This document shows positions 50,748-52,769 of a DNA stretch of 64,000 nt, piece by piece. The position numbers were made by a program, and so were the translations under genes. Every line of letters starts with the position of its first letter. The stretch's first letter is position 1. The DNA is from Naegleria gruberi (taxonomy: Eukaryota), in NCBI GenBank assembly GCA_000004985.1, contig GG738894.1. One strand, given 5' to 3'. Below the pieces are notes generated by a model, which searched no databases, was not told the DNA's origin, and saw nothing but the letters and a program-made list of their open reading frames with translations.

Positions 50748-52769
50748 CTACAATATTTCTCTTTGCATCATAATCAGTCCAAAAAGGACTTGATGCAGCA
50801 CTGATAGTTCAACTCGTTCTTGCAAACAGGTATCTCTGAATCGGATAGTCACAGTTGCATTCAATAAACTCTCTTCATCAATAGTGATGGCAATAGGAAT
50901 TCCAATTTCATCAGCACGTTTATATTTCTTTCCAATTGAGTGTGCACTTTCATCATGTTTGAAGGGAATGGAAAGAGTTCTTATAATTTTAGTAACCTTT
51001 TCTAGTACCATCTTTTCCTCATTAGTTTTGACTTTACAGTTAGAAACCAGTAATACCTTGATTGGAGCCAACTGACTTGGTAAAGAAAGAATAGGCCTTT
51101 CCTCATCTCGAGTCCAAAATACATGTTCCAATAAGCTCAATAATATTCTACTAACAGAAAATGAAAGATCAATGATGTGAGGAGTAATCTTTTCTCCATA
51201 AACTTTTTTCACACATTCCACAAACGAAATATCATCTTTGGATAATTGGAAATTCTTTCCATTGATATCAAGTGAGATTTTGTGGTTGGTTTCCAACTCT
51301 GTTTGATATTGAGATTTCTTCTCCTTAGATAGTCCACTAAGGTGCTCTAACAGTATTTTGGTATCATTCTTGTAACGTTTTCCAAGCTTTTGATGTGAAA
51401 ACTCCACAACTATTTCTCTCTCCTCAAGAGGTTCATCAAATGAATCAAATAGAGAGAGATCAGAGTTAGAATGTTGAGAATGTTGCAGCAAATCGTAACC
51501 TGCTTTGGATTGAACATTAACAACCTCTACCCAACCAATGGTTGTCAACACCTCACATGTCCACAACTGCTCCAATCTATATGAAAATTGTTTTCGAAAC
51601 CGTATTCCTTCACTCAAAAATCCACATTCCTCCATGAATTCTTGTGTTCTGGCAAGATAGTAAGCCAATGATTTGTTAGCTATGAATTCTTGTTCCGCAG
51701 CATCTTTGATCGAAATCTTGGTTTCTTCATCATTTGAATCTAAAAGCAATCTCACAATTACTTGCTCGACTTTCTTGGAGTACTTTTCACAATTATTTTT
51801 CTTTGCTCCATTGCAGAAATGCATTATTTTTGCGCTTGAATTTTCCCTCAGTTTCGAATAGTGGCCAGTAGTTGTAGAATTATCAAAAATGGACCCAACC
51901 TGTGCAACTGAAAAGGGTAACCGTTTTCCACCATATTCCCATAACCGCTTAATATTTGTGTAAACACCTTGATCGAGATCAGGTCTCAAATAAACACTTG
52001 TTCTACCTGTTACTCCAATTTGTGTTTTAATCGCAAACGTCCATTCAAATACTTCAGAAATTTGATTTCCATCCATACTCCTAATTCTAAACCTCTTAAT
52101 AATATTATTCATGGCACCACCATCATAAGAATGAAGATTTGCAAGAATTTCTCTGAAATGTTTGATTTGAACACTTGTTAATAAATCCTCGTTGCCCAGC
52201 TTTTCCTGTATGAAATCCTCAATAACTTTGGTGGCAAGAATGATCTTATCAGTCTTCATATCTTTCACAATAAATTCATTAAAAGGAAAAAAGAATCCAA
52301 AAGCTCTGTAAACTTCATCAAGTACAAGTGAGCTCGTTTCCATTTCCATCATTTCTTCCTCCAATACGAAATGTTTCCTCCATAATCCAATCACATTATT
52401 CTTCAAATTGCATCCCAAAGGACCTAAATCCACCAAACCACTCACTCCACCATAAATTTCGAATGACGGTAATACGAAACAATTTTTCAATAAACATGCC
52501 CTTAATAACTGATCATTGAAATGTAATTTACTCGATTCGGAACACTTCTTTGCAATTATTTTCAATTCCAAATTTAATAATTTAATTCTCTCCTCATCAC
52601 GATCGGAAGAAGAATTAAAATTTGATAATTGTTGTAATTTTTCTTTGAATAATTGATTAATAGCAATTCGTTCTTCTAATGTTGCAATTTTAGGTTGATT
52701 GTTGGTGGTAGTTGTCGAAGAAATTGCATTTTCCGTTGATGTGTTGTTGCCTATCTGATTGTTGATCAT
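50748..52769 (-). CDS. Glycyl-tRNA synthetase (class IIa) paralogue with degenerate catalytic motifs: GlyRS-like pseudoenzyme (673 aa)
   Basis: The real start is an AAAAAAA-ATG at 52769. The ORF-track M at 52790 is a GTG. The protein aligns end-to-end with eukaryotic GlyRS. Examples: [36 protein letters not shown] matches human [70 protein letters not shown] matches [47 protein letters not shown]...[20 protein letters not shown] matches GKTFQLTKDMINV...[20 protein letters not shown]. The anticodon-binding domain aligns as LAPIKVLLV...[24 protein letters not shown]...[12 protein letters not shown] against [24 protein letters not shown]...TATLRDRDSMRQ.

Motif 2 is destroyed: human [29 protein letters not shown] corresponds here to [29 protein letters not shown], so both the Arg and the Glu are lost. 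The insertion-domain segment TSGHVDKF is replaced by AFGFFFPF. Confidence 0.85.
   Translation of the reverse strand: [673 protein letters not shown]

Follow-up and report, generated by a model that had tools for sequence, protein, structure and literature searches.

HisZ and the HisRS-like domain of GCN2 are dead paralogues of aminoacyl-tRNA synthetases, and together with POLG2 and SLIMP they show how translation enzymes have been recruited to other jobs. Here we describe NAEGRDRAFT_51934, a gene found in a 64,000-nucleotide stretch of contig GG738894.1 from Naegleria gruberi (hereafter the window), whose product resembles glycyl-tRNA synthetase (GlyRS). Dead synthetase paralogues are a well-known kind of protein, and NAEGRDRAFT_51934 is best filed as an addition to them, namely an independent, full-length GlyRS-derived lineage from a protist. 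By analogy, its closest functional precedent is SLIMP, a duplicate of a class II synthetase in animals that has an ablated active site, has kept its tRNA-binding domain and exists beside an active paralogue, the mitochondrial SerRS2 (PMC10570016). NAEGRDRAFT_51934 likewise appears to combine active-site ablation with conserved tRNA-binding modules, and an active paralogue is encoded in the same genome. The two differ in that SLIMP derives from SerRS, is mitochondrial and widespread in animals, and its heterodimer and function were shown experimentally, whereas the Naegleria protein is known from sequence.

POLG2 is also non-catalytic; its fold resembles that of class IIa synthetases and its C-terminal domain is of the HGTP type, but it is of independent origin, and only this C-terminal domain is detectably similar to NAEGRDRAFT_51934. 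Yeast GRS2, which encodes a stress-inducible second GlyRS, is likewise a lineage-specific second GlyRS gene that is dispensable beside the housekeeping gene (PMC3306390). Its product GlyRS2 is active, about 5-fold less than GlyRS1 (PMC3306390), whereas the catalytic residues are lost in NAEGRDRAFT_51934. A 2022 review table of aminoacyl-tRNA synthetase duplicates lists under GlyRS only yeast GlyRS2 and the aa:CP ligases (PMC9437257), and we found no description of the NAEGRDRAFT_51934 protein in the literature. Besides, the trypanosomatid 'prozymes' of AdoMetDC and deoxyhypusine synthase are dead paralogues of oligomeric enzymes in discoban protists (PMC5201418, PMC3663545). They belong to unrelated enzyme families, and the activation by heteromer formation that is demonstrated for them is for NAEGRDRAFT_51934 an analogy only. 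Prozymes are a possible model for its regulation by hetero-oligomerisation.

NAEGRDRAFT_51934 has the domain order of the canonical eukaryotic alpha2 GlyRS (TIGR00389; human GARS1 structures 2PME, 2ZT5 and 5E6M), and its predicted fold matches that of human GlyRS. It has lost Arg, Glu and Phe of motif 2, the glycine-binding Glu triad, the AHYA lid, the Pro of motif 1, the SGH loop and the glycines of motif 3. Compared with the canonical heterolobosean GlyRS, NAEGRDRAFT_51934 also lacks the 'WVR' insertion and the Lys-rich tail, and it evolves several-fold faster.

GlyRS homology and the altered active site

The 673-residue product is 100% identical to the database entry 'predicted protein [Naegleria gruberi]' (EFC40211.1, XP_002672955.1, UniProt D2VSL1). 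Its frame contains no internal stop in 673 codons, compared with 27–66 stops in each of the remaining five frames. An earlier note on the window had called the protein GlyRS over its whole length, and this was borne out: it scores 411 bits against NCBIfam TIGR00389 (glyS_dimeric), above the cut-off of 243, and is thus a member of the family, while human GlyRS (PDB 2pme) matches it across residues 98–669 with an E-value of 4e-89 in HMMER. The correspondence between GKNFQLSKDD in the insertion domain and GKTFQLTKDM, also pointed out in that note, is present in the human GlyRS alignment. Judged by these alignments, the whole-length homology to eukaryotic alpha2 GlyRS is far beyond chance. A WHEP-like region at the N-terminus is followed by the class II core, which contains insertions 1–3, and then by an anticodon-binding domain of the HGTP type. 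Each of the three GlyRS insertion regions could be aligned and modelled. In Pfam, the HGTP anticodon-binding domain alone was recognised (PF03129, E 2e-15); the class II core tRNA-synt_2b (PF00587), which nearly all other listed GlyRS homologues carry, gave no match at E-values up to 0.1.

To score catalytic competence, 19 key positions were used, with residue roles taken from a structural paper on Mycobacterium and human GlyRS (PMC12208437) and with the human numbering offsets fixed by the human equivalents given there (Met294, Val289, Ser524 and Gly528). According to this work, the motif 2 Arg of GlyRS binds the alpha-phosphate/sulfamoyl group as well as the glycine carbonyl, the motif 2 Glu hydrogen-bonds the adenine N6, and adenine is sandwiched between a Phe and the motif 3 Arg. 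The glycine amino group is held by a Glu triad (human E245, E296 and E522), one member of which is oriented by a fourth, buried Glu (E298), and a lid with the motif [AS]HY[AS] closes the active site (PMC12208437).

In an hmmalign alignment of 395 sequences, 12 of the 19 key positions are substituted in NAEGRDRAFT_51934 and a further three are deleted. Among the losses are residues found in 381 or more of the 394 other GlyRS-family sequences. At most three of the 19 positions are substituted in all but two of these others, the exceptions being a protein of N. lovaniensis (seven substitutions) and an AT-rich metagenomic protein (eight). On a broader scale, 159 columns are at least 90% conserved among 76 canonical GlyRS, and NAEGRDRAFT_51934 keeps 88 of them, compared with 141 in Giardia, the most divergent canonical sequence and the one with the lowest canonical retention.

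In the motif 2 segment (Table 1), the Arg equivalent to human R277 is replaced by Asp296, the Glu E279 by Ser298, the adenine-stacking Phe F292 by Asn310, the triad residue E296 by Lys314 and the buried E298 by Met316, while R283 is deleted. The glycine-pocket loop reads LRPDLDQG in place of the canonical LRPETAQG, with the triad residue E245 exchanged for Asp264 and T246 for Leu265. In motif 3, the third triad residue E522 has become Asp534, P523 a Leu, and both G526 and G528 a Ser. The invariant Pro of motif 1 is replaced by Leu (LTPE to LVLD), and the SGHV loop has turned into FGFF with a His to Phe exchange. From the canonical lid, QH..EMAHYA.DCWDxE, four residues including AHYA are lost, EMAHYA.DCWD being represented by RLEQL----WT. 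Retained are the motif 3 Arg (R529, here R541), Ser524 (here Ser536) and the Glu of WDxE. The claims of the earlier note that motif 2 is lost and that other active-site segments are substituted therefore both held, with motifs 1 and 3, the glycine pocket and the lid all affected.

The degenerate motif 2 peptide translates exactly from its positions in Table 1 and aligns residue for residue with canonical motif 2 in five independent alignments (HMMER against PDB, MAFFT with 9 and with 77 sequences, BLASTP against the organism's own canonical GlyRS, and hmmalign with 395 sequences), and realignment in all five leaves the motif 2 Arg and Glu substituted. An unspliced intron or frame error as the cause of the degeneration was rejected, since the segment aligns residue for residue and its flanks are intact. 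The Arg to Asp exchange reverses the charge at a position that is invariant in class II synthetases, and the adenine-binding residues are lost as well. Given what is established about class II synthetases, adenylate chemistry is very unlikely, and NAEGRDRAFT_51934 is very probably dead for glycylation.

Origin within the Naegleria GlyRS lineage

An intact GlyRS of N. gruberi, 'Glycyl-tRNA synthetase [Naegleria gruberi]' (P0285; XP_002675607.1, D2VK04), has all motifs intact and is encoded on a different scaffold (394.7 kb) from NAEGRDRAFT_51934 (499.9 kb). NAEGRDRAFT_51934 is thus not the only GlyRS gene of this genome, and the suggestion in the earlier note that it is not the housekeeping GlyRS was right. 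When 1.84 billion cluster representatives were scanned exhaustively with phmmer, no match exceeded 38% identity; the best one was P0121, and the heterolobosean GlyRS set including P0285 was reached by using P0121 as query. A word-indexed homology search alone had suggested an orphan without heterolobosean affinity, a possibility that was overturned by the exhaustive representative search and by the searches with P0121 and P0396.

The best BLASTP and phmmer scores of NAEGRDRAFT_51934 are those with GlyRS of Willaertia, N. lovaniensis and N. gruberi (405–421 bits), followed by other heteroloboseans (341–386 bits), while sequences outside the group reach about 350 bits at most. Identity to GlyRS drops with phylogenetic distance, from 37% for N. 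gruberi through 36% for both N. lovaniensis and Willaertia to 31% for Acrasis and 28% for a plant. Moreover, NAEGRDRAFT_51934 and the Naegleria/Willaertia GlyRS have in common the 'MIN...' start, the helical N-terminal extension, KLH(I/F)N, WxCE, ITID(D/E) and the Cys of RDSC (RDTC in NAEGRDRAFT_51934). An origin from a giant virus or by other horizontal gene transfer was rejected, as no relative turned up in IMG/VR, the surrounding genes are of ordinary Naegleria type and the tree position is inside Heterolobosea.

Our key-residue screen also flagged P0155, which together with P0396 forms a 90%-identity cluster of two N. lovaniensis proteins, C9374_010603 (454 aa) and C9374_006773 (651 aa). 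These paralogues are 51% identical to the canonical GlyRS of N. lovaniensis, with which they coexist, and they are devoid of the N-terminal helical extension. Arg, Glu and Phe of motif 2 are intact in them, as is the Arg of motif 3; their changes are E245D, T246L, E298I, S524T and G526H, with SFST in the lid instead of AHYA. Neighbour-joining without them was ambiguous, placing the sister of NAEGRDRAFT_51934 within the heterolobosean set in 142 of 200 bootstraps and NAEGRDRAFT_51934 basal to all other non-outgroup sequences in 53 of 200, a pattern typical of a long branch. With the N. lovaniensis paralogues included, they and NAEGRDRAFT_51934 are monophyletic in 199 of 200 bootstraps, a grouping that could partly reflect long-branch attraction, and the paralogues are sister to the canonical Willaertia/Naegleria GlyRS, the joint clade being recovered in 187 of 200.

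At sites invariant in four canonical sequences, the N. gruberi and N. lovaniensis paralogues have 28 derived residues in common, among them E264D and T265L (human E245D/T246L) and P576S. Where a single canonical lineage has changed, the ancestral state predominates in both paralogues (12 vs 7 and 8 vs 4). Since N. lovaniensis holds a related paralogue, the duplication seems to predate the species split, and the simplest reading of these comparisons is that the gene was duplicated once, ahead of the separation of N. gruberi from N. lovaniensis, and that very fast divergence followed. Measured against the sequences of the enzyme, the paralogue lineage evolves 3–5 times faster.

The earlier note had also proposed that the Asn/Thr-rich N-terminus may target the protein to an organelle. 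This part found no support, as the composition is not presequence-like: the first 30 residues contain one basic, one acidic and 19 Ser, Thr, Asn or Gln residues. Instead, its counterpart in the alignment is the 'MIN...' helical extension at the N-terminus of canonical GlyRS from N. lovaniensis and Willaertia, and because this lineage-specific start and extension are shared with the Naegleria/Willaertia enzymes, the Asn/Thr-rich N-terminus appears to be inherited from the canonical enzyme. The following residues 24–78 align with the N-termini of canonical GlyRS, where PF00458 is present in some cases; the Pfam scan of NAEGRDRAFT_51934 did not call WHEP. On this alignment, the WHEP-like domain is inherited from the canonical heterolobosean GlyRS N-terminus.

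Some observations on the related gene models may be added. Compared with its orthologues in N. lovaniensis and Willaertia, the model of P0285 (650 aa) is some 70 residues short at the N-terminus, where the 'MIN...' helical extension is missing, and this annotation is probably truncated. Two features set the canonical GlyRS of Heterolobosea apart from other eukaryotic GlyRS, namely a C-terminal tail rich in Lys (QTASxKVGKK) and, following 'WVR', an acidic/basic insertion. The N. lovaniensis paralogues are located at 5538-7365 (L001) and 6001-7956 (L002) of PYSW02000044.1 and PYSW02000028.1, respectively. The two loci are about 99% identical including their flanks and have identical neighbours, as would be expected of haplotigs or of a recent segmental duplication; the copies differ by five substitutions (two non-synonymous and three synonymous), which leaves dN/dS uninformative. 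UniProt has automatically named both copies 'glycine--tRNA ligase' despite the altered glycine pocket and lid, and counting them as active synthetases would be an error of annotation.

Constraint, function and rival explanations

The main rival to a retained function is that NAEGRDRAFT_51934 is a redundant duplicate in slow non-functionalisation, that is, a relic with an open reading frame (ORF) and without a selected function. Neutral substitution simulations at the local base composition, run to 37% identity (n=200), produced 20–49 stops (mean 35) and never reached zero, whereas NAEGRDRAFT_51934 has none and its protein is colinear with GlyRS. By this measure it is not a decaying pseudogene, and its ORF is preserved against stop codons. 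Site-specific constraint also speaks against a relic. Away from the active-site segments, NAEGRDRAFT_51934 has the same residue as the canonical N. gruberi GlyRS at 17% of variable sites and at 85% of the near-invariant ones (at least 95% conserved), with a correlation between retention and conservation (Spearman 0.37, p 3e-14) of which part is expected from change on the canonical lineage itself. Inside the active-site segments, retention is 45% at sites conserved to at least 95%, without a significant trend. NAEGRDRAFT_51934 keeps 16 of 18 conserved columns in the motif 1 helix segment and 19 of 23 in the anticodon-binding domain, compared with 6 of 19 in motif 2 and 11 of 28 in the lid region; when pooled, the motif 1 region and the anticodon-binding domain retain 35/41, as against 43/103 in the active-site segments (Fisher p 2e-6). 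We read these patterns as purifying selection that is visible outside the active-site segments and clearest around the motif 1 helix and in the domain for anticodon binding. That NAEGRDRAFT_51934 is a functional, selected protein is accordingly the probable case in our judgement, and a relic is rather unlikely.

A number of observations weigh against this judgement, most of them in favour of the relic. The paralogues are restricted to one genus, no further orthologue having been seen in protein databases beyond N. gruberi and N. lovaniensis, and they are only 35.5% identical between the two species, compared with 80% for the canonical enzymes. Degeneration looks stepwise, the N. lovaniensis copy keeping the motif 2 Arg, Glu and Phe that are lost in N. 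gruberi, and the L001 copy of N. lovaniensis has suffered a 62-nt frameshifting deletion in its coding region. Fast evolution, genus restriction and the frameshifted copy all fit a weak or fading constraint. Synteny between the window and the N. lovaniensis loci revealed nothing in common beyond the gene itself, a literature search by accession of the protein gave no mention, and a lookup of the exact protein among contigs, in search of transcript assemblies, gave no record of expression. The AlphaFold2 model has good scores (pLDDT 88.6, pTM 0.83) and human GlyRS structures head its list of Foldseek matches, reaching a TM of 0.87 when normalised on the target, but part of this confidence stems from the canonical GlyRS sequences that the underlying alignment contains. 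In addition, the Lys-rich C-terminal tail is lost in both Naegleria paralogues, with the 'WVR' insertion also missing from that of N. gruberi, and if this tail aids tRNA binding, its loss argues against strong tRNA binding. Were NAEGRDRAFT_51934 merely a slowly dying duplicate, it would be of minor interest.

On balance, we lean towards the explanation that NAEGRDRAFT_51934 is a paralogue of the Naegleria cytosolic-type alpha2 GlyRS that is unable to charge tRNA and is kept as a folded protein. This duplicate from the Naegleria/Willaertia GlyRS lineage coexists with the intact GlyRS, and with the residues for the ATP alpha-phosphate, the adenine and the glycine amino group as well as the lid replaced or deleted, glycyl-adenylate formation would be lost. 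The protein would then work by binding and not by catalysis, an option that we favour because a dead pocket is combined with a preserved scaffold, motif 1 helix, insertion 3 and basic anticodon-binding domain. It may bind tRNA-Gly or tRNA-like RNA via the anticodon-binding domain and insertion 3; also or instead, it may dimerise via the class II motif 1 interface, either with itself or with the active GlyRS. The motif 1 helix, residues 117–136 in the AlphaFold2 model, is the classical dimer-interface element of class II synthetases. As for insertion 3, its counterpart in human GlyRS is the tRNA elbow-binding domain and contacts the tRNA bound across the dimer (PMC9908026); its identity to the consensus is 0.32 in NAEGRDRAFT_51934 vs a canonical mean of 0.44, so that its similarity comes close to the canonical level. 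We put forward a function specifically in tRNA binding or heterodimer regulation as a tentative suggestion from these conserved modules, one that may well prove wrong.

It appears decidedly less likely that the paralogues constitute a genus-specific, fast-evolving family of GlyRS-derived pseudoenzymes with a real regulatory role in Naegleria. Such a protein may be a prozyme-like heterodimer subunit, or a sensor, sequestering factor or decoy that binds tRNA-Gly, and the fast turnover would then reflect adaptive conflict, for instance with viruses or toxins hitting GlyRS or tRNA-Gly, and not decay. If true, NAEGRDRAFT_51934 would parallel SLIMP or POLG2 as a case that arose independently in a protist, with the GlyRS architecture left complete.

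The copies of the two species are at different stages, the glycine pocket and lid being altered in N. lovaniensis and the ATP site being lost too in N. gruberi. They form a natural series in which to follow how the active site of a class II enzyme is dismantled without loss of the fold, the motif 1 (dimer) helix region or the tRNA-binding modules.

The remaining explanations fare worse. A neofunctionalised enzyme, with a pocket remodelled for a new ligand or a different reaction, would account for the fact that Asp296, Ser298, Asn310, Lys314, Met316, Asp264 and Asp534 are remodelled and not deleted positions, and that Ser536, the Arg of motif 3 and the Glu of WDxE are still in place. The N. 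lovaniensis relative would also fit a changed substrate, with its ATP-binding residues kept and its glycine pocket and lid altered, and synthetase paralogues with new chemistry do exist (Table 1 of PMC9437257). Nevertheless, the charge reversal from Arg to Asp in motif 2 and the loss of the stacking Phe and the N6-binding Glu make adenylate chemistry very unlikely, the flat relation between retention and conservation in the active-site segments resembles released constraint rather than redesign, and the pockets of the two species' paralogues differ from each other. We thus hold a new enzymatic activity to be very improbable. Still less credible is an active and highly divergent GlyRS, such as a mitochondrial one. 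The full GlyRS architecture and the score above the TIGR00389 cut-off are in its favour, and the canonical Naegleria GlyRS N-termini that were examined are not obvious presequences either; yet 15 of the 19 key catalytic positions are gone, near-universal residues among them, the lid is deleted and no catalytic domain is matched in Pfam, so that this explanation is essentially excluded.

The analogy to POLG2 drawn in the earlier note implies a GlyRS fold recruited to mitochondrial DNA or RNA metabolism, either POLG2-like or as another organellar nucleic-acid factor. POLG2 is a precedent for such a recruitment of a class IIa synthetase fold, POLG2 structures are among the matches, and the anticodon-binding domain is basic (pI 8.66). 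The similarity is nonetheless confined to this C-terminal domain (residues 553–675) at E-values of 4e-10 to 3e-4, some 80 orders of magnitude weaker than the 4e-89 for GlyRS, and Foldseek aligns the POLG2 chains (about 400 residues) to the model far less well than GlyRS, at TMq ~0.44, rmsd ~14 Å and 14% identity. The three GlyRS insertion regions are all aligned and modelled, and the polar, low-complexity N-terminus with its single basic residue in 30 is homologous to the canonical extension. We therefore found no specific support for the analogy and consider an organellar factor of this kind highly improbable. Of the earlier interpretation as a whole, the GlyRS derivation, the ablated active site and the paralogue status have stood, while organelle targeting and likeness to POLG2 found no support; the fast-evolving paralogue lineage that extends to N. 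lovaniensis had escaped it.

Coordinates and genomic surroundings

Table 1. Positions in the window of NAEGRDRAFT_51934, its segments and the features around it.
Feature	Position	Strand	Remarks
Run of N	1-41860		one unbroken run of 41,860 bases
Real sequence	41861-64000		about 22 kb, ~33% G+C, ordinary Naegleria-type genes
ORF with NHL/EGF repeats and kinase domain	47087-49111	+	NHL/EGF repeats, then a protein-kinase domain ending at profile position 164/263
RNI/LRR_6-type leucine-rich-repeat protein	49527-50660	-	directly downstream of NAEGRDRAFT_51934
NAEGRDRAFT_51934, GlyRS-like paralogue coding sequence	50748..52769	-	complete, intron-less, 673 codons plus stop; ATG at 52769, stop at 50748-50750
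Residues 1-25	52695..52769	-	Asn/Thr/Ser-rich low-complexity N-terminus, not presequence-like; pLDDT <50 for residues 1-21
Residues 24-78	52536..52700	-	two long helices (AlphaFold2: 24-48 and 56-78), WHEP-like appended domain
Residues 90-146	52332..52502	-	N-terminal catalytic-core segment with IYGG loop and motif 1 helix; well conserved
Residues 147-160	52290..52331	-	motif 1 end and SGH loop, degenerate
Residues 260-268 (YLRPDLDQG)	51966..51992	-	glycine-pocket loop
Residues 295-318	51816..51887	-	degenerate motif 2 (ATP-binding loop)
Residues 393-406	51552..51593	-	lid region
Residues 433-528	51186..51473	-	eukaryote-type insertion 3, retained, including GKNFQLSKDD
Residues 530-549	51123..51182	-	altered motif 3
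Residues 557-673	50751..51101	-	HGTP-type anticodon-binding domain; well conserved, basic (pI 8.66)
489-aa ORF	53628-55097	+	long Thr, Gln and Pro runs; without Pfam match
Val-rich ORF	53726-54445		antisense to the 489-aa ORF
tRNA-Lys gene	63588-63660	-	anticodon TTT; close to the window end

The genes around NAEGRDRAFT_51934 in the window encode NHL/EGF receptor-like kinases, an RNI-type leucine-rich-repeat protein, a methyltransferase and an actin-like protein. The 24-residue repeats of the leucine-rich-repeat protein (..GDEGAKYISEMKQLTSLNI..) are almost identical among themselves, which suggests recent repeat homogenisation. The gene with the kinase domain at 47087-49111 probably continues past an intron, and the Val-rich ORF looks like a compositional artefact of the ORF to which it is antisense.

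The second strongly altered sequence of our alignment is P0213, a GlyRS-like protein encoded at 3404-5161 of locus L003 on the contig ENA ERZ26696514, with 8 of the 19 key residues changed, including Arg to Lys exchanges in both motif 2 and motif 3. This contig is metagenomic and very AT-rich, with densely packed genes on the same strand, and the P0213 gene adjoins an actin gene.

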